This document shows positions 54,080-62,462 of a DNA stretch of 64,000 nt, one piece after another. Under the pieces are notes generated by a model. That model saw nothing but the letters and a program-made list of their open reading frames with translations. It ran no database searches and was not told where the DNA came from. Positions within the stretch are counted from its first letter, which is position 1. Every line of letters starts with the position of its first letter. The translations under genes and the position numbers were made by a program. The stretch lies in assembly GCA_963741445.1 (NCBI GenBank), contig CAVUIE010000006.1, positions 15,926 through 79,925 of the forward strand, read 5' to 3'. This stretch comes from an uncultured Chloroflexia bacterium (GTDB lineage: Bacteria > Chloroflexota > Limnocylindria > Limnocylindrales > CSP1-4).

Positions 54080-56357
54080 GTGAGTCCCTTCGATCGCCTT
54101 GGCCGCTTCGTCGCGCGTCGGGCGTGGCTCGTGGTCGGCGCGTGGGCCCTCGTCCTGCTGGCCGCGATCCCGCTCGCGCCGCGTGTCCCGGGCGTCCTGT
54201 CGGCCGGCGGCTTCATCCTCGACGACCTCGAATCGGCCCGGGCCAAGGCCCTCCTCGGGACCGAGCTCGGCCTCCCGCCGTCGGCGCTCGTCATCGTCTT
54301 CAGCAGCCCGACGCTCGAGGCCGGGACGCCCGCCTTCGAAGGCGCCGCGGCGGCGGCCGTCGCCGACATCGCGAGCGCGCCGCATGTCGCCCGCGTGGTG
54401 CCGCACCTCCTGTCCCCGCGGCAGATCTCGGCCGACCGGCACACGGCCTACGACATCGTCTTCCTCGACCTGCCGCCGGACGACTCGCCCGAGGCCCTGC
54501 CGATCCTGCGCGAGCGGCTCCACGAGGCGCCCGGCCTGACCGTCGAGCTGGCCGGCGGCCCGGCGTTCTACGGCGACGTCCAGAGCGTGTCCGAGGCGGA
54601 CCTCCGGCGGAGCGAGGTCATCTCGCTGCCGCTCGCCGCGCTCGCGCTGCTGGTCGTCTTCGGCTCCGCGGTGGCGGCCGGGGTGCCGCTGATCGTCGGC
54701 GGCACGGCCGTCGTGGTCGCGCTCGCGGGCATCTTCCTCGTCGGGTCCGTGATGCCGATGAGCATCTTCGTGCTCAACCTGGCGACGCTGCTCGGCCTCG
54801 GCCTGGGCGTGGACTACTCGCTGCTGCTGACGAGCCGCTTCCGCGAGGAGCTGGCCCGCCGGCCGGCCGGCCCCGAGCGCGTCCCCGACGCCGTGCGGGT
54901 GACGGTCGCCACGGCCGGGCGCGCGGTGTTCTTCAGCGGGCTGACGGTGCTGCTCGGCCTCCTCGGGCTGGTCCTGTTCGAGTTCATGATCCTGCGCTCG
55001 GTCGGGATCGCCGGCGCGATCGTCGTCGGGCTCGCGGTCCTCTCGGCGCTGACGCTGCTGCCGGCGATCCTCGCGATCGTCGGCGAGCGCATCGACCGCT
55101 ATCGGCATCCGGACCGTGCGGCCGGCGGACCGCGTCGACGGCCCGTGGGCGCGCCTCGCCCGGCGGGTCATGCGCCATCCGGTCGCGGTGCTGATCCCGA
55201 CGCTGCTGTTCCTGCTCGTGCTCGGCTCGCCGTTCCTGCACGTCCGGTTCAACGCCCCGGACGCCTCGATCCTGCCCGCGAGCGTCCCGTCGCGCGCCGC
55301 CTTCGACCGCCTCGCCGCCGACTTCGGCGAGGGCGAGTTCGCCCCGATCGTGCTGGCGATCCGGACCACGCGGCGACGCCACCGGCCCCGAGAACCTCGC
55401 GACGCTCTACGACTACTCGAGGCGCCTGGCGGCGGACCCGCGCGATCACGCGCGTCGAGAGCCTCGTGGACGCCGACCCGCGCCTGACCCTCGACCAGTA
55501 CCGGCTCCTCTACGGCGGACCCGAACGGACCGCGCGACCGCTACCTCGCCACGGCCCTCGCGGCGACCACCAAGGCCGACCTGACGGCGTTCACGATCTA
55601 CACGCCGTACGGGCCGAACCGCGACGAGGGCCGCGACCTCGTGGCCGACCTGCGCTCCCCGACCGGGCCGCTGGCCGCCCCGGCCGGCACGACCGTGCTG
55701 GTCGGCGGCGGGGCCGCGGACGTGACCGACGTCGTCGGGCGGGTCGCGGCCGACTTCCCGCGGACCGCGCTGTTCATCATCGTGACCACGTACCTCGTGC
55801 TGTTCGCGCTGCTCCGCTCGGTGGTGCTCCCGGCCAAGGCGCTGGTGATGAACACGCTCTCGATCGTCGCGAGCTTCGGCGCGCTGGTCTGGATCTTCCA
55901 GGACGGGAACCTCTCGTCGATCCTCGGGTTCCAGCCGCTCGGCTTCGTCGAGACGACCCAGCCCGTGATCCTCTTCTGCGTCCTGTTCGGGCTGTCGATG
56001 GACTACGAGGTCTTCCTGCTCTCGCGCATGAAGGAGGTCTGGGACCGGACCGGCGACAACACCGAGGCGGTCGCCCGCGGCCTCGAGCGGAGCGGTCGGA
56101 TCGTGACCTCCGCCGCGCTGATCGTGGTCCTCGTCGCCGGGTCGTTCGCCTTCGCCGACATCGTGCTGATCAAGGCGCTCGGCGTGGGGATGGCCATCGC
56201 GGTGGCTCTCGACGCGACCGTCGTGCGGGCGCTCCTCGTGCCGGCGACGATGCGGCTCCTCGGCAAGTGGAACTGGTGGATGCCGTCCACGCTGGAGCGC
56301 TACGTGGCGAACCGGCTGCCCGCCCCCGAGGCCGACATCGAGGCGGCGCTCCGATGA
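54080..56357 (+). CDS. MMPL family (RND) transporter; frameshifted
   Basis: GLGVDYSLLLTSRFREE, AGRAVFFSG, FGLSMDYEVFLLSR, DATVVRALLVPA. Confidence 0.93.
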
Positions 56358-57568
56358 GCGGACGATCCGCCGGCTCGGCGCCCGGTCGACGCCGGATCGC
56401 TCGTGGCCCTCGCGGTCGTGGCGGCGGTCCTCGCCGGCTGCACGGCCGGCGCCCCGATCCTGGCCAACCCGACCGCGCCGGGACCGGTCGTGCCGTCGCC
56501 CGCGCCGACGCCCGCGGCCGTCGCCGATCCGCTCCCCGTGGTCCTGCCGCGGGACGACGGCCCGCACGACCGCCTGACCGAGTGGTGGTACGACACGGGC
56601 CACCTGCGGACCACCGACGGGCGGCGCTTCGGCTTCGAATACGTGATCTTCCGCGCCGAGCGCGGCGCGTTCCCGACGTCGTGGGCCTCGCACCTGGCGA
56701 TCACCGACGAGACCGGCGACCGCTTCGTCTACGCCCAGCGGCTCGAGGTGGGCCCGTCCGTCGACCGCTCGCCGCGCGGCGCCGACGGCGAGCCGACCGG
56801 CTTCGACCTCTCGCTGACGGGGCTCGACCCATCGAACCCGGCCACGGCCGGTCGCCCGGCCTGGACGATGACCGGCGCGGGCGGCGCGGACCGGCTCGTC
56901 GGCCATGGCGGCTCCCGACGAGGCCGCCGCGGCCGGCTCGCCCGGCGGGTTCGGCCTGGACCTGCTGCTGGCCGCCGCCAAGCCGCCGGCCCTCCACGAC
57001 CACGACGGCTGGATCGACTTCGGCGAGGCCGGCAGCTCGTACTACTACTCGCGGACCGCGATGACCGCCACGGGGAGCCTGACCCTCGACGGCGAGCGCC
57101 TGGCCGTCGAGGGCGAGGCCTGGTTCGACCACCAGTGGGGCGACTTCATCTCGATCGGCGGCGGCGGCTGGGACTGGTTCGCCGTGAACCTCGACGACGG
57201 CACGGACCTGACGCTGTCGCTGGTCCGCGACGCCGACGGCGCGTATCCGCTGGTCTACGGCACGCTCGTCGCCCGCGACGGGACGGCGCGCCACCTCGAC
57301 CGCGACGCGTTCACCGTCGAGGTGACCGGCCGCTGGACCGAGCCCGGCGACCGGCGCGGACTACCCCGCCGGCTGGCGGGTGGCCATCCCCGGCGAGCGG
57401 CTCTCGATCGAGCTGACGCCGACGGTCGCCGACCAGGAGCTCGACACGCGGGCGACGACCGGGGTCATCTACTGGGAGGGCTCGCAGGTCGTGCGGGCGG
57501 AGCGGGACGGCGTGCCGCTCGGCGGCGAGGCGTACGTGGAGCTGACGGGCTACGCAGGACCGCGCTGA
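56354..57568 (+). CDS. AttH/CrtC-like lipocalin-domain lipoprotein; frameshifted
   Basis: Lipobox LAGC, EWWYDTG, SYYYS, AWFDHQWG, GWDWF, DQEL, YWEG, YVELTGY. Confidence 0.85.
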
Positions 57569-58404
57569 GCGCGGATGCAGGACCGCGCTGAGCGCGGCGC
57601 GGTCCACTTCGGGCGCGAGCGCCCCGAGGTCGACCGCCGGCAGCTCCACCTCGGCGACCGCGGCGAGCGTCCGCGACGGCCTCGTCGAGGGCGGGCAGAG
57701 CCCTTCAGGATCTTGAGCATCGCCTTCGCGTTGGCGCGATACGCCTTGGTGTCGGAGATCGAATCGCCCAGGCTCGCGTGCGCCGAGGTCGCGATCGCGG
57801 CGTAGAACGCGGCCCGGTCCCCGGAGAGCGTCTCGCCGCCCGGCCACGCGGCGATGCGCGGGGCGATGTCGGCGCCGATGGCGGCGTCGGCGGAGAGCGA
57901 GCGCAGGACCTTGGCGATGTCGTTGGCGGTGCCGCTGCCGGCGATCCGCGACAGCGCGGTGGCGTCGTCGGCGATGCGGGCATCGAGGATCGCGGTCTGG
58001 CGCAGGGCGGACAGGGCGGCGGGCGGGACCGGGATGGCGGTGGCGACCGGGATCGCGCTCGGGCCGGCGGCCGCGCTCGCGACGGGCTTCGCGACCCCGT
58101 CGGCGGGGTCGAACGCGGTGGTCGCGGTCGGGTCCACGAGGGACTTGATGACGACGGAGGTGACCATGCCGCCGACGAACAGGCCGACGATGGCGCCGAA
58201 GCCGATCAGGGTGACCGCACGTCGGACCGCGACGCCCATGATCAGCCGCGTGCCGCAGCCGGGGCACTTCGGCGTGCCGTCGGTCAACGGTCGCGAGCAC
58301 GTCGGGCAGTTGAAGACGTGCGCATCCGCCTCGCCGATCGCGAGCTTCGGCGGTCCGTCCGGTCGCTGGCCGGACAGCCGGCCACGCAGAAGATTGAAGG
58401 TCAT
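57550..58404 (-). CDS. Hypothetical membrane protein with N-terminal zinc ribbon; 3' end uncertain
   Basis: CPTC...CPGC followed by a TM helix and a helical domain. Confidence 0.6.
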   Translation of the reverse strand: MTFNLLRGRLSGQRPDGPPKLAIGEADAHVFNCPTCSRPLTDGTPKCPGCGTRLIMGVAVRRAVTLIGFGAIVGLFVGGMVTSVVIKSLVDPTATTAFDPADGVAKPVASAAAGPSAIPVATAIPVPPAALSALRQTAILDARIADDATALSRIAGSGTANDIAKVLRSLSADAAIGADIAPRIAAWPGGETLSGDRAAFYAAIATSAHASLGDSISDTKAYRANAKAMLKILKGSARPRRGRRGRSPRSPRWSCRRSTSGRSRPKWTAPRSARSCIRAQRGPA

Positions 58405-58513
58405 CCCGTCGAGTGTGGCCGTCGGACGCGCGGATGCACCCGACCCGATGGTCCCGAGACGCGCCGGGACGTTCGGTCGCCGCCGAGCGCGGCGGACGGC
58501 GCCGCACGCGCCG

Positions 58514-58536
58514 TTGCTGAGACTGAGTATCGACAA
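58514..58536. promoter_or_regulatory. Fur/Zur-family box candidate
   Basis: TTGCTGAGACTGAGTATCGACAA, 23-bp imperfect palindrome (16/23 self-complementary) upstream of the Fur-family gene. Confidence 0.5.
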
Positions 58537-58568: not shown

Positions 58569-59003
58569 ATGGACGCCGTCGACCCCCTGGCCCTCGCGCT
58601 CCACCGGGCCGGCTACCGCCTGACCGAGCCGCGCGTCGCGGTGACCCGCCTGATCGAGGCCCAGACCGGCCACTTCTCGGCGGCCGACCTCGTCCACGAG
58701 GCCCGCGTCCGCCACCTGGGCATCGGCCGCGCGACGATCTTCCGGACGCTGGACGTCCTGTCCGAGCTCGGCGCGGTCGAGCGGATCGACCTGCCGAGCG
58801 GCGAGCACGCCTACGTGGGCTGTGCCCCGACCCATCACCACCACGTCGTCTGCTCGCGCTGCGGCCGCACGGCCGAGATCGAGGACGCCGGGCTGCGGGC
58901 GGTGGTCCGCGAGGTCACGCGCCGGACCGGGTTCCGCGTCGACGAGCACCGCCTCGAGCTGTTCGGCCTCTGCTCGGCCTGCCAGGCCGCGGCCGCCGGC
59001 TGA
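58569..59003 (+). CDS. Fur family metal-responsive regulator (Zur-like)
   Basis: RLTEPR, HFSA, IGRATIFRTL, HHHHVVCSRC, GLCSAC. Confidence 0.93.
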   Translation: MDAVDPLALALHRAGYRLTEPRVAVTRLIEAQTGHFSAADLVHEARVRHLGIGRATIFRTLDVLSELGAVERIDLPSGEHAYVGCAPTHHHHVVCSRCGRTAEIEDAGLRAVVREVTRRTGFRVDEHRLELFGLCSACQAAAAG

Positions 59004-59762
59004 TGTCGCTCGCGGCCCTCGTCGTCTCGTTCGGCGCCTTCGTCTCGGCCTTCGCCGGCGGCTGGCTGGCCATCCGCGCGGTCCGCTACGTCGGGATCGT
59101 CATCGCGGTCGGCGCCGGGATCCGGATCGGCGCCGCGTTCTTCGACCTGATCCCGGAGGCCATCGCCTACCTCGGCTCGGTCGACGCGGCGATGCTCTGG
59201 ACGGCGATCGGCTTCCTGGCCTTCTACGCCATCGAGAAGCTGACCACGCTCCACGTCGGCCACGAGACGGCCGCCGAGCTCGACCACGACGACGCGATGC
59301 ACACGCACGTCGGCACGGGCCGGCGCCGTCGGGATGGGGATCCACAGCTTCCTCGACGGCGTCGCGCTCGCGGCCGGCCTCGCGGTCGGCGGCGGGACCG
59401 CGATCGTCATCGCGGTCGTCGTCATCGTCCACCGGTTCAGCGACGGGATCGGCGTGGTGAGCTTCCTGCTGGCCAGCCGGATGCCGTCGTCGACGGCCTA
59501 CCGCTGGCTGACGCTCGTCGCGATCGCCCCGGTCGCCGGCGTCCTCGTCGGGGTCGATCGTCAGCATCGAGCAGACGACGCTCGGCGCCGTCCTCGCGTT
59601 CTTCGCCGGCTTCTTCCTCTACGTCGGCGCGGCGGAGCTGCTGCCCGAGGCGCACCGCCGCGACCGGTCGCGCTGGATCGTGCTCGCCACCGATCGGCGG
59701 CGCGGCGGCCATCTACCTGTTCTCGCGTCGCCGTCGGCGCCATCGGGGTCGCCGCTCCCTGA
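59003..59762 (+). CDS. ZIP family divalent metal transporter; frameshifted
   Basis: FFDLIPEA, His-rich loop, IHSFLDG, VHRFSDG, ELLPEAH. Confidence 0.88.
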
Positions 59763-59873
59763 GCGACGAAGGTCCCACCGACCGCGCGTGACCATCGGCC
59801 GGCATCGCCGGACGAAACCTTTGCGGCCGTGCGCTGCCTCGGGTGAGTAGACACCATCCGCCCGGAGCATCCC

Positions 59874-60579
59874 ATGGCCACTGCGACCCCAGCACGGAGC
59901 GGCCCGCCGTTCCGCCTCACCCTCCGCGGGACGGCGATCCTCGTCGGCCTGCTCGGCCTCCTCCTCGTCTACGCGACCGACCAGATCCTGCCCGCCTCGA
60001 CCGATCGGCAGGCCGAGCTGCGGTTCTGGCTCGCGGCGCGGGCGACCGGCATCGTCGCGTTCCTGCTGCTGACCGTGCAGATCGTCCTGGGCCTGGTCCT
60101 CAGCCACCCGACGAACCGCTCCACCTGGAACCTCTCGAAGCGGATCTTCCCGTGGCACGACCACCTCTGGGTCTTCGTGCTCGCGTTCCTCATCGCGCAC
60201 ATCGTCAGCCTCGTCGTGGACCCGAAGGCCGGCGTCAGCCTCGCCGGCGCGTTCGTCCCGGGCCTGTCCGAGTACCGCAGCTCACCCGTGGCCATCGGCA
60301 CGCTCGCGCTGTACGCCTTCCTGGTCACGGCGATCACCGCGCGCTGGACCAAGCTCCTGCCGCGCGGCGTCTGGCTGTCGATCCATCGCCTGGCGCTCGT
60401 GATCTGGGTGATGGCCTGGATGCACGGGGTGCTCGCGGGCACGGACACCGGCGCGCTGGCCGCTCCTGTACGTCGCGGCGGGCCTGCTCGTCGTCGGCGC
60501 GGGGGCCTACCGCTACTGGGCGAGTCGCAAGCAGAAGCCGACGTTCTCGACGTCGCGACAGGAGGTCACACCCGGATGA
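59874..60579 (+). CDS. Ferric reductase-like (MsrQ-type) transmembrane protein; frameshifted
   Basis: WLAARATG, WHDHL, AHIV, WLSIHRL, WMHG (four candidate heme His), GTD. Confidence 0.85.
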
Positions 60580-61046
60580 ACATCACGTCGCTCCGGCTGG
60601 CGGCGCCTGCTCACGACCGTCGGGGTCGTCGCGGCGCTGGTCCTCGGGTTCGGCTCGATCCGGGCCGCGGCCGCCTGGACCGCCGCGTCGGCGCCGATCA
60701 GGCGTCGCGCCCGATCCCGGTCGGCTCGATCCAGGACCGGCTCGACCAGGAGCTGGCCCGCTCGGAGGCGATGCGGGCGCAGCTCGACGTCGCTCGCCGC
60801 GCAGTCCACCGAGATGACGACCGCGCTCGAGGCGGCGCAGGCCCGCATCGCGGCCGACACCGGGCACGCCAAGGCGCTCGCCGACGAGCTCAAGGCCGCG
60901 AAGCAGAAGCTGGCCAAGCCTCGAGGCGTCGATCGCGGCGGCGAAGGCGGCGGCGGCCCGGTCGGCCGCGACGACGAACGCGGCAGCCGCCGCGACCGCC
61001 GACACCGACGCGCCACGGCGACGACGACGGTGAGACCGATGACTGA
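60576..61046 (+). CDS. Hypothetical exported coiled-coil protein; frameshifted
   Basis: GGAGG RBS, ATGA overlap, N-terminal hydrophobic segment, Ala/Gln heptads, acidic end (HGDDDGETDD). Confidence 0.6.
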   Translation: MNITSLRLAAPAHDRRGRRGAGPRVRLDPGRGRLDRRVGADQASRPIPVGSIQDRLDQELARSEAMRAQLDVARRAVHRDDDRARGGAGPHRGRHRARQGARRRAQGREAEAGQASRRRSRRRRRRRPGRPRRRTRQPPRPPTPTRHGDDDGETDD

Positions 61047-61457
61047 CCGTCGACCCGTCCATCTCGCCGTCCTCGTCGGCGCGTCCGCGGGCGCCTACGC
61101 GATCTCGCTGGCCGGCGTCACGGCGCTCCAGTCGGCGACGGACGCCCGTGTGGCGGCCGAGCGCGGGCCGGCCAGCCACGCCGTCGACGTCGTCGCGACC
61201 GGCGCACGACGGCCTGCAGGCCTCGATCGACGGCGCCGCCGGCGCGTTCGCCGTCGCCGCCGATCGGTACGCAGCCATGACCGATCGCCTCGCGGAGATG
61301 GAGGCGTCGCTCGACCACCTCGGGCAACGGGTCGCCAAGGTCACCGGGGCGGCGGGCGCGCTGCCCACGCGGGTCAGCCTGCCGACCGTCCACGCGGGCG
61401 ACACCGCCGGTCACCCGCACGAAGGTCGTCCACGCCACGACGGGAGCCTCCGGCTGA
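61039..61457 (+). CDS. Hypothetical exported protein ending ...VHATTGASG (candidate ApbE flavinylation substrate); frameshifted
   Basis: MTDRRPVHLAVLVGASAGAYAISLAGV anchor; AAG GTC GTC CAC GCC ACG ACG GGA GCC TCC GGC TGA at 61422-61457. Confidence 0.6.
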
Positions 61458-62462
61458 GCGCCGGCCCCGCGTCCGGTCCGCGGTCGGCCGTCATCGAGCG
61501 ACCTGACCGGATCCACCGGTTCGAGGCGAGCGCGATGGCGTCGCCCCTGCGCCTGAGCGTGTGTCGGCGCGGTGACGACGATCGGTCGCGCGAATGGGAG
61601 ATCGACGCCGCCTGGGCCGCGGTCAGGACGGAGTTCGAGACCGCCGAGGCCGAGCTGTCGCGCTTCCGGCCGACGAGCGACCTCACCCGCCTGAACCTCG
61701 CCGCCGGATCTGGGCGGACGCGTCGACGTCCCGCGGCGGCTCGAGCGCGCCCTCGTCGCGGCGGACCGGGCCCATCGCGTCACGGGCGGCCGCTTCGATC
61801 CGCGCGTGCTCCGCGACCTCGATCGCCTCGGCTACGCGGGCGCCCCGATCGGGTCGCGACCGGGCCGCGTCGGACGCGGACCGGGCCGCCGGCACCCGCG
61901 TCGTGGATCGCGCCGGGCGCGGCCGAGTCACGACGTCCTCGCCGATCGACCTCGGCGGGATCGGCAAGGGGCTCACGCTCCGCTGGGCGGCGGCGCTGCC
62001 TCGAACGACGCGGCGTCGCGCGGTACCTGCTGGAGGCCGGCGGCGACCTGGTCGCCCGCGGTCCCGGGCCCGACGGCGACCCGTGGCTCGTCGGGATCGA
62101 GGATCCCGCCGGCGGACCCGACCCGCTGGGCGCGATCGCGGTCGATGCCGGGGCGGTCGCGACGTCGTCGGTCCGGCTCCGGTCGTGGGTCCATGACGGC
62201 CGGACCGTCCACCACCTGCTCGACCCGCGGACCGGCGAACCCGTCGAGTCCGGGCTGCGGGCGGTGACCGTGTCCGGGCCGGACCCGGCCTGGGCCGAGG
62301 TCTGGTCGAAGACGCTGTTCGTCGGCGGCGCGGTCCGCCATCGCGGGCGAGGCCCGGGGACGTGGGCTGGCGGCCTGGTGGGTGACCGACGCGGGGGACC
62401 TGGAGATGACGCCGGCCGCTCGCGCGCGCACGGCGTGGGTCGAGGGCGAGAGCGCGACCTAG
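61454..62462 (+). CDS. apbE: FAD:protein FMN transferase; start unresolved, frameshifted
   Basis: LSRFRPTSDL, GRFDP, DLGGIGKG, AGGDL, VGIEDP, VATS, HHLLDPRTG. Confidence 0.92.

Follow-up and report, generated by a model that had tools for sequence, protein, structure and literature searches.

The operon and its reading frames

We analysed a stretch of 64,000 nucleotides (hereafter the window) from an uncultured Chloroflexia bacterium (GenBank assembly GCA_963741445.1, contig CAVUIE010000006.1, positions 15,926 to 79,925 of the forward strand), which holds an operon of four tightly packed, translationally coupled genes (Table 1). We call their products g1, a predicted di-haem b-type membrane cytochrome; g2, a coiled-coil protein with an RR signal-like start and an acidic tail; g3, a predicted single-pass helical protein whose last residues read T-T-G-A-S-G; and g4, a member of the ApbE family, which moves flavin mononucleotide (FMN) from flavin adenine dinucleotide (FAD) onto proteins. 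The original prediction, drawn from the DNA letters alone, had described these four genes and proposed that the g3 tail may be an unconventional ApbE substrate; all four genes are present at the positions given, on the plus strand, and it is the tail of g3 that concerns us here.

Table 1. Features of the operon and of the metal genes next to it (window positions)
Feature	Position	Strand	Remark
Operon	59874-62462	+	g1, g2, g3 and ApbE (g4)
g1, putative di-haem b-type membrane cytochrome	59874-60579	+	Read by translation; surplus base near 60462
g2, coiled-coil protein with RR signal-like start and acidic tail	60576-61046	+	ATG overlaps the TGA of g1; surplus bases near 60595, 60702, 60709, 60790 and 60916 and one more before 61010
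g3, single-pass helical protein, candidate ApbE substrate	61039-61457	+	8-nucleotide overlap with the end of g2; surplus bases near 61204 and 61392-61394
T-T-G-A-S-G codons	61437-61454	+	Followed by the TGA stop, 61455-61457
Ser codon, proposed FMN acceptor	61449-61451	+	In the g3 tail
g4, ApbE-family FAD:protein FMN transferase	61535-62462	+	Start MASPLRL, 78 nucleotides past g3; surplus bases near 61716-61718, 62331 and elsewhere
Fur-family metal regulator	58569-59003	+	Pfam PF01475, E 7.5e-29; directly upstream
ZIP-family metal permease	59003-59790	+	Frame broken by assembly indels; PF02535 in two pieces

The window has a G+C content of 73% and belongs to an assembly of 2.9 Mb in 9 contigs with a completeness score of 55.9%. 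Each operon gene is broken in it by +1 frameshifts: g2 begins MNITSLR... and needs several frame changes to be read further, and the reading of g3 opens with MTDRRPVHLAVLVG... and, once the frame has been changed twice, closes with ...TKVVHATTGASG before a TGA. We compared the stretch with contigs from four soil-metagenome runs, short pieces that are 90-99% identical to it; the runs share 0.06-0.20 of sampled words with the stretch and were used solely for reading insertions and deletions. No RNA data set was listed as containing the stretch. Among the sites listed, these short-read contigs are one base shorter at 60462, 60595, 60702, 60709, 60790, 60916, 61204, 61392/61394, 61716/61718 and 62331, and the one-base gaps coincide with the positions where the frame must change to follow the orthologues. 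Because the contigs of relatives miss one base at each shift site, we attribute the frame breaks to assembly errors in the form of surplus bases. One short-read contig (61404-61525) spans the tail motif and its stop codon with 2 mismatches and no gap; since this independent contig covers the tail gap-free, we take T-T-G-A-S-G-stop to be the true coding-frame end of g3. The original prediction had read these last codons and had asked for indel correction to settle their frame, and both the reading and the frame hold. All downstream analyses used intact orthologues from related genomes, not mended window sequence; intact orthologous operons with the same tail are present in many related genomes.

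The +1 frame breaks run through the whole window (1-64000; for example at 54080-57591 and 59003-59790), as expected of an unpolished long-read assembly, and probably explain the low completeness score. Gene calls on the source genome need orthologue-guided reading.

A conserved ApbE-type motif at the end of g3

A profile of g3 searched against 1.84 billion representative proteins yielded 343 matches at E<=0.001, 267 of them at E<=1e-10, and in the ESM Atlas g3 falls in unnamed Chloroflexota clusters annotated 'hypothetical protein'. Scans of four orthologues assigned g3 to no Pfam or NCBIfam family, giving at E<=1 only coiled-coil-type matches below the cut-offs, and found none of the domains known to be flavinylated (FMN_bind, NqrB/RnfD, DUF2271, DUF3570, Flavodoxin_4, FMN_red). 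That no FMN_bind domain is recognisable had been part of the original prediction; it stands for the operon proteins g1-g3 and falls for the genome as a whole, which encodes an FMN_bind protein with its own ApbE elsewhere.

The end of g3 carries the core [S/T]-G-A-[S/T] of ApbE substrates, reading T-G-A-S in the window. All 40 near homologues (33-99% identity) terminate in T-G-A-S-G plus 0-3 residues, and in an alignment of 29 sequences T136, A138, S139 and G140 are invariant and G137 is kept in at least 90%, after some 25 columns that vary. We counted tail motifs over 184 family proteins: [ST]GA[ST] lies within the last 12 residues of 136, and a looser pattern, T/S-x-[AG]-S-G, is found in 156. 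Conservation of TGAS among homologues, named as a check in the original prediction, is thus seen at both ranges (40/40 near homologues, 136/184 family proteins). The same motif occurs in few of the other operon proteins (g1 2/19, g2 2/25, ApbE 1/20), and the terminal TGAS is the sole conserved ApbE-type motif in the operon. Judged from these alignments, the terminal motif is conserved far beyond chance.

Two kinds of deviating tail deserve mention. In one locus (L031, 852-1905) g3 ends T-S-A-S-G-K-P and g2 carries T-G-A-S-G 13 residues before its own end, which looks like a shift of the motif to the partner subunit. In a further subgroup (L020, L025; P0059, P0093, P0112, P0140, P0184) the g3 tail reads C-T-[TN]-x-S-G-K-[PV]-C(P), a Cys standing on either side of the Ser, which hints at a terminal disulfide loop or a metal site, instead of or besides flavinylation.

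A structure model of g3, folded with 35 sequences, consists of a single helix (residues 2-108) with a predicted local distance difference test score (pLDDT) above 90, after which the tail is disordered (block pLDDT 67, 59, 61 and 42). One long helix with a disordered tail leaves no room for a flavin-binding fold. The layout is a membrane helix, a stalk helix of ~75 residues, a disordered tail of ~30 residues and the terminal T-T-G-A-S-G. Its dimensions are regular: in the 104 of 184 sequences in which both anchors could be located, the span from a conserved His before the membrane helix to a conserved Leu-Pro at the helix end is 100 residues at the 5th through the 95th percentile, and the distance from Leu-Pro to the Ser has a median of 28 residues. 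Estimated from these residue counts, the stalk would be ~11 nm long and the stretched tail about as long. The N terminus is positively charged (RR, KKK) and the flank past the helix is neutral to acidic; this charge distribution, together with the complex model described below, predicts an N-in/C-out topology with the tail outside the cell. Residue 9 of g3 is a nearly invariant His (P-x-H-L) at the cytoplasmic start of the membrane helix, and in the complex model it lies near the g1 stretch P-W-H100, which includes a putative inner-haem ligand.

The predicted partner proteins g1 and g2

Five His residues of g1 (H83, H100, H114, H176 and H189) are invariant in 27 sequences. Modelled with a pLDDT of 73.9, g1 shows six long helices; H100/H114 fall on helix 3 (98-120) and H176/H189 on helix 5 (171-192), spaced as H-x13-H and H-x12-H. 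This is the His-pair spacing of ferric-reductase-domain proteins. When the 27 members were scanned singly against Pfam at E<=10, 17 matched PF01292, the prokaryotic cytochrome b561 family (best 3.5e-6), 3 matched PF01794 (best 1e-6) and 6 matched PF03188, so that membership is ambiguous between PF01292 and PF01794; no curated Pfam or NCBIfam family was reached over its cut-off by the g1-g3 proteins. Close g1 homologues are named YedZ/MsrQ or 'predicted ferric reductase' by their sources. A Foldseek search of the model against the PDB returned nothing at E<=0.001, with S. pneumoniae NOX (8qta, E 0.24, probability 0.90), STEAP1, NOX5 and DUOX1 among the top weak rows. In a wide VIA-align search all g1 scores stayed at Z <8, and the alignments to Dcytb (5zlg; Z 7.9, root-mean-square deviation 4.2, 160 residues), cytochrome b561 (4o6y; Z 7.6, 4.5, 155 residues), STEAP1 (6y9b; Z 7.3, 5.4, 185 residues) and NOX5 (5o0t; Z 6.5, 6.4, 172 residues) all lie under the caution line for helical bundles. 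We describe g1 as a predicted di-haem b cytochrome of the ferric-reductase/b561 kind and not as a proven PF01794 member. Its earlier description as a ferric-reductase/MsrQ-like protein with four His is accordingly kept as to the six helices and the His pairs on helices 3 and 5, and loosened as to the family, PF01292 being matched more often than PF01794. With 227-296 residues, g1 has no binding domain for nicotinamide adenine dinucleotide (NAD) or FAD, and we therefore infer a quinol as its electron donor.

R8 and W33 never vary among 21 g2 orthologues, and R9 is conserved to at least 90%; the protein starts ...RR-x-L-T, followed by a hydrophobic stretch and A-A-A-W, beyond which come a long coiled-coil helix, a Ser/Thr/Ala-rich linker and an acidic tail of His, Asp and Glu. 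Pfam and NCBIfam gave coiled-coil noise only. TatC, of the twin-arginine translocation (Tat) system, is present in all five genomes tested. The acidic tail is itself conserved, for example as HREEHDEDEHEGGGDHDDD; in the window (61010-61046) it reads HGDDDGETDD-stop, and most orthologues end in D-D. By its composition it looks like a metal-binding tail.

We modelled g1, g2 and g3 of one genome as a three-chain complex, each with its own alignment. As a partner, g3 scored 0.82 (median of three runs); the highest of three controls gave 0.10. Among solved complexes 116 of 157 attain the mark, and among mismatched pairs 2 of 215 do, a calibration that is only rough here because own alignments and three chains were used. 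The runs have at least 86% of contacts in common, with a partner pLDDT of at least 77. The model has the membrane helix of g3 (residues 3-34, among them the invariant Tyr21) lying against g1 helices 1-3, in the same direction as helices 1 and 3 and opposite to helix 2; with the Lys/Arg-rich g1 loops inside, this orientation puts the stalk outside. Contacts at heptad spacing join the long helices of g2 and g3 as far as about residue 105, and the tail is left unplaced. The model supports g1-g2-g3 binding without proving it. Complex modelling had been suggested along with the original prediction, and the heptad-spaced contacts agree with its guess that the second coiled-coil protein is a partner.

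The operon ApbE and a second ApbE in the genome

The assignment of g4 is firm: an intact orthologue (L002) matches PF02424 at E 4.2e-47 (161 bits, cut-off 25.6), the window piece 61937-62320 does so at E 1.1e-28, and ApbE chains in the PDB are matched at E 7e-19 to 1e-15. The motifs DLGGIGKG and VHHLIDPxTGxP are kept in 18 aligned operon ApbEs with minor substitutions (DSGG, HHLVDP) and align to the PDB enzymes; the His of H-x-I-D-P-x-T-G-x-P is described as the general base (PMC12052999). Most operon ApbEs start M-G-S-P-L-R-L right at the domain, and the longer N termini contain no hydrophobic stretch. A Shine-Dalgarno-like GAGG lies 12-9 nucleotides upstream of the g4 ATG. We considered a longer N terminus, suggested by a conserved 'RFEG' before the ATG, and rejected it, the conserved DNA being the GAGG site at a fitting distance and L002 having no in-frame upstream ATG, GTG or TTG. 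By their sequences the operon ApbEs are a distinct, well-conserved subfamily; they share D-P-A-W-A-E-V-W-S-K-x-L-F-L, an insertion before V-H-H-L-I-D-P, and A-T-S-S where the second paralogue and the PDB enzymes read A-T-S-G.

This second ApbE (253 residues) is encoded elsewhere in the genome, following a canonical FMN_bind protein with the motif LLSGATYTS, an N-terminal hydrophobic segment and a long Ser/Thr/Gly-rich linker (FMN_bind and ApbE pair: G000:C1:678747-679676, L013; also L015, 725-2067); since it adjoins its own canonical substrate, the operon ApbE is an extra paralogue. Nor does the second ApbE have a signal peptide, although an N-terminal hydrophobic segment is present in its FMN_bind substrate. 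In this lineage exported substrates seem, as a rule, to be paired with ApbEs that have no signal, and since the second pair shows the same mismatch, we regard it as a lineage trait and not as a special argument against g3. Two further genomes, G019 (82% complete) and G432 (95% complete), have an ApbE and no FMN_bind, NqrB/RnfD, DUF2271 or DUF3570 protein over cut-off, within the limits of their incompleteness.

Distribution and gene order

A 67-residue piece of g3 from the window finds matches in 10 of 41 related genomes, including 9 of 24 in one family (f1) and 0 of 16 in a small-genome family (f2). With the g3 profile, 19 of 401 genomes of the phylum give matches, and the convincing ones are confined to two families of one class (f1, 11/23; f3, 4/16). 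Three partial matches beyond the class (E 2e-4 to 8e-4) resemble coiled-coil noise and were set aside. Near-identical proteins bear the source name 'Candidatus Limnocylindrales', and on present matches the system appears confined to a single Chloroflexota class, Limnocylindria going by the source names.

We examined 27 loci, one of which (L010) proved to be a false match, weak, with an internal TAG and without the operon proteins, and was dropped. The order g1-g2-g3 is kept in all 26 operon-bearing loci, and apbE lies directly downstream of g3 in 21 of them, two of the five misses being at contig ends. A fusion of g3 and ApbE by read-through or frameshifting is ruled out, the relative frames of the two genes differing between genomes. 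In G432 (G432:C91:61162-62031) the g3 tail reads T-G-G-S-A-P-P-P, the operon has no apbE, and the sole ApbE of the genome is on another contig.

Metal genes next to the operon

Directly upstream of the operon lie genes for a Fur-family regulator and a ZIP-family permease (Table 1), as the original prediction had noted; the two ZIP pieces match PF02535 at E 1.1e-7 (59003-59320; 31.9 bits, below the cut-off of 35.1 bits) and at E 2.7e-11 (59334-59759). We surveyed the neighbourhood of 16 larger loci, calling genes roughly by third-position G+C and comparing 122 neighbours with Pfam. In 7 of 13 f1 loci (L040, L042, L043, L046, L048, L051, L052) the ~4 kb upstream contain Fur and/or ZnuA/ABC-3 genes; with the window counted, Fur plus ZIP or ZnuA/ABC-3 is found upstream in 8 of 14, so that the metal neighbourhood recurs. 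Fur and ZnuA genes are on the operon strand in L040, L042, L043 and L051, with an ABC-3 gene next in L040 and L042. The ZnuA/ABC-3 genes of the related genomes occupy the position of the ZIP gene in the window; with the type of transporter swapped and the link kept, a functional tie is favoured. As related genomes are not independent of one another, we treat the association as a hint. Other f1 loci have multicopper oxidase, CopC/CopD or DsbA-like genes nearby.

Proposed mechanism and alternatives

We give a little better than even credence to the reading that FMN tethered to the g3 tail, loaded by the cognate ApbE probably before export, passes electrons from the di-haem cytochrome on to an outside acceptor that has a link to metal uptake. 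On this view the operon would specify a membrane redox complex of three subunits and, with it, a flavin transferase of its own. Within it, g1 would hold two b haems between the His pairs of helices 3 and 5, and g3 would be anchored on g1 helices 1-3 by its one N-in/C-out membrane helix, the ~75-residue continuation of which would be paired with g2. The ApbE encoded downstream would move FMN from FAD to the Ser of the g3 tail as a phosphoester. Since this ApbE carries no export signal, flavinylation would probably take place in the cytoplasm, before export of the g2/g3 stalk. Electrons would then pass from the membrane quinol pool through the two g1 haems to the tethered flavin, which would act as a swinging arm reducing an acceptor beyond the membrane, with Fe(III) or Mn(III/IV) as the likeliest candidates. 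The reduced metal would be taken up by the adjacent Fur-controlled ZIP or ZnuA/ABC-3-type transporter, and the acidic His/Asp/Glu tail of g2 may hold metal. In a more pointed form of this idea, which we put forward tentatively and consider rather doubtful, g3 would be a natural 'flavin-tag': FMN on the end of a flexible tail atop a ~11 nm g2/g3 stalk on a di-haem cytochrome, a tethered shuttle with no pocket, loaded in the cytoplasm and then exported, perhaps via the RR signal of g2. With a tail that roughly equals the stalk in length, the flavin could move back and forth between the outer haem at the membrane surface and acceptors as distant as about 20 nm. Such a tag would be a seventh class of ApbE substrate and a novel means of connecting a cell electrically to insoluble Fe or Mn.

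Several observations weigh against tail flavinylation as proposed. Outside both the strict and the loose pattern are 28 of the 184 tails, mostly variants (TRASGG, TKASG, TCASGKxCP, TNASGKPC, SGGSA, TGGSA), about four being unrelated or truncated; among the tails of 26 loci, 18 have the strict motif, 7 deviate as variants and 1 is unreadable. The column of the Asp in the canonical D-x-x-[ST]-G-A-[ST] reads H, Q, N, S, T or A, with D in 1 of 29 sequences, and the acceptor is Ser, described as poorer than Thr for ApbE (PMC12052999). Three loci (L003, L024, L030) have no apbE despite available downstream DNA. The tail is predicted outside the cell and the ApbE has no export signal, none of the 18 full-length aligned operon ApbEs showing a signal peptide or membrane helix. 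Operon ApbEs read AEVW[S/A]K(T) versus the canonical A-D-x-x-x-T, which is ADAYATT in the second paralogue and ADGWDT or ADALAT in PDB enzymes. We take this stretch to contribute Mg ligands, and the Glu of the operon enzymes may still bind metal. A flavin with no pocket would be solvent-exposed. On the side of export, Pfam and NCBIfam scans listed no Tat-signal family for g2 at E<=1, in libraries that include Tat-signal models, and for this reason a Tat reading of g2 is only a lead; nor is RR invariant in g3, where 66 of the 154 sequences with the His anchor have it in its usual place. As to the acceptor, three f3 loci have no metal genes nearby, with methylmalonyl-CoA mutase upstream, and zinc, a metal without redox activity, may be what the ZnuA/Zur-type neighbours handle; among the possible substrates of ZnuA-type systems (Zn, Mn or Fe), only Mn and Fe would fit a reductase.

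Taken together, the missing Asp, deviant tails such as TRAS, TKAS, TGGS and TCAS...C, a predicted cytoplasmic ApbE facing a predicted outside tail, Glu/Lys at the usual Asp/Thr stretch, the three loci that keep g3 with no adjacent apbE, and the canonical FMN_bind protein in the genome would suit a different account, the main alternative, which we think unlikely though it deserves to be taken seriously: the terminal T-G-A-S-G would have another role (another modification, a protease or partner tag, a contact with g1), g2 and g3 would be a purely structural stalk, and ApbE would act on a different protein or only bind or hydrolyse FAD, supplying non-covalent flavin. The FMN_bind gene has its own adjacent ApbE, however, the motif is conserved in no other operon protein, and the two genomes mentioned above, G019 and G432, have an ApbE with no known substrate family over cut-off. 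What is conserved in the tail (Thr, small, small, Ser) is moreover what the ApbE motif specifies, and terminal 7-residue tags are described as good ApbE substrates (PMC12052999). The signal-less ApbE would also fit a cytoplasmic arm, in which the g3 stalk and tail stay on the cytoplasmic side and the FMN on g3 feeds the inner g1 haem, replacing the NAD(P)H/FAD domain that many ferric-reductase-type proteins carry as a fusion; g1, so short and with no NAD/FAD domain, would leave room for it, and cytosolic ApbEs are on record (PMC12052999). We consider this improbable: the positive charges of g3 are at its N terminus, with the flank beyond the helix neutral to acidic, the orientation in the complex model puts the stalk outside, and the stalk partner g2 starts with a signal-like RR, hydrophobic segment and AAA-W, and the operon encodes no cytoplasmic reductase, which a flavin with no pocket would require. 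That the operon is a decayed pseudogene cluster with a chance motif in a broken frame, as the frameshifts in every operon gene and the 55.9% completeness of the genome might suggest, is scarcely credible, given that relatives' short-read contigs miss one base at each shift site and span the tail gap-free, that breaks of the same kind affect genes across the whole window, and that intact operons with the same tail are found in many genomes. Tail flavinylation, as first proposed, has thus survived each computational test run, and it is in this sense that we infer it.

Relation to known flavinylated systems

The closest described systems are MsrQ-like clusters with apbE and an FMN_bind protein, reported mostly from Actinobacteria, for which iron assimilation was suggested from neighbouring transporter genes (Meheust et al. 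2021, eLife, PMC8238504). As described there, these clusters resemble the present operon in having a six-helix, two-haem cytochrome of the ferric-reductase kind (predicted here), an adjacent apbE, a small extracytoplasmic flavinylated subunit (a candidate here) and a metal-reduction proposal. They differ in that the MsrQ-like clusters carry an FMN_bind protein, whereas the candidate substrate here has no flavin-binding fold and bears its motif on a disordered C-terminal tail, and in that the MsrQ-like cytochromes often carry an NAD-binding domain at the C terminus, which g1 lacks, mostly missing PF01794 as well (PMC8238504). The present operon further has an extra coiled-coil subunit and a signal-less ApbE, and comes from one Chloroflexota class instead of Actinobacteria. 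As described, the screen retained a cluster only if a signal peptide or lipidation site was present in its ApbE, FMN_bind, DUF3570 or DUF2271 protein, and because of this requirement it would have skipped the present operon (PMC8238504). Published screens that require an ApbE signal peptide or a known substrate domain would thus have a blind spot.

A motif on a tail has a described precedent. Among the substrate contexts given by Huang et al. (2024, mSystems, PMC11334425), namely FMN_bind, NqrB/RnfD, DUF2271, Flavodoxin_4 and FMN_red, the FMN_red protein was flavinylated experimentally on an unstructured C-terminal extension, seen as fluorescence under ultraviolet light and lost in Ala mutants. 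Like g3, FMN_red proteins bear the motif on such an extension, with Ser in the acceptor position and their cognate apbE close by; there, however, a flavodoxin-like fold already has a flavin pocket, into which the tail brings FMN, and the systems are from Firmicutes with no membrane cytochrome partner (PMC11334425). As g3 is a long helix only, any flavin pocket must come from g1 or g2 or be absent. NqrC/RnfG (PF04205) resemble g3 as proposed here in being single-pass, N-terminally anchored extracytoplasmic subunits whose S/T-G-A-T/S carries FMN on its final residue and which relay electrons received from a membrane partner, and differ in having a globular FMN-binding domain around the site, for which g3 gave no Pfam match at E<=1. 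STEAP/NOX and Dcytb/cytochrome b561 proteins are like g1 in their six helices and four His, with weak fold matches; as a difference, g1 has no cytosolic dehydrogenase domain.

What is described of ApbE specificity bears on the unusual features of the g3 tail. For the motif D-x-x-[S/T]-G-A-[S/T], the review PMC12052999 (JBC) reports minor effects of an Asp-to-Ala change in one enzyme and about half flavinylation after Gly-to-Ala or Ala-to-Val changes; it describes Ser as accepted, though poorer than Thr, a 7-residue motif as sufficient and best at a protein terminus, and cytosolic ApbEs as existing. The engineered 'flavin-tag' (Tong et al. 2021, as described in PMC12052999) is a terminal motif of ~7 residues that is enough for FMN attachment; it is synthetic, with a leading Asp and a Thr acceptor, whereas the g3 tail is natural and reads [H/Q]-A-T-T-G-A-S-G plus 0-3 residues.

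The natural ApbE substrates described in PMC8238504 and PMC11334425 place the flavin in or beside a folded domain (FMN_bind, NqrB/RnfD, DUF2271, DUF3570, Flavodoxin_4, FMN_red). A full-text literature search, which did not reach the large supplementary table of PMC8238504, found no description of the g3 family or of a tail-only ApbE substrate. If the proposed flavinylation is true, the substrate would be a mere membrane-anchored helix with the acceptor on a floppy terminus, a new class of ApbE substrate, free of any flavin-binding domain, within an already known kind of system, and nature would already be using what engineers built as the flavin-tag. How a flavin with no pocket is tuned and protected would then become a question. 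Flavin-based extracytosolic electron transfer would extend to Limnocylindria, an abundant uncultured soil lineage, tied there to Fur-linked metal uptake.

Other genes in the window

Further upstream in the window, an MMPL-family transporter gene (54080-57591) runs into a CrtC/lipocalin-like part, and an MMPL(-lipocalin) gene is also found near the operon in three other loci (L038, L039, L049). On the minus strand at 57550-58536, divergent from the Fur gene, a 328-residue open reading frame encodes a protein with a C-x2-C...C-x2-C zinc-ribbon, a single membrane helix and a C-terminal part rich in Ala.

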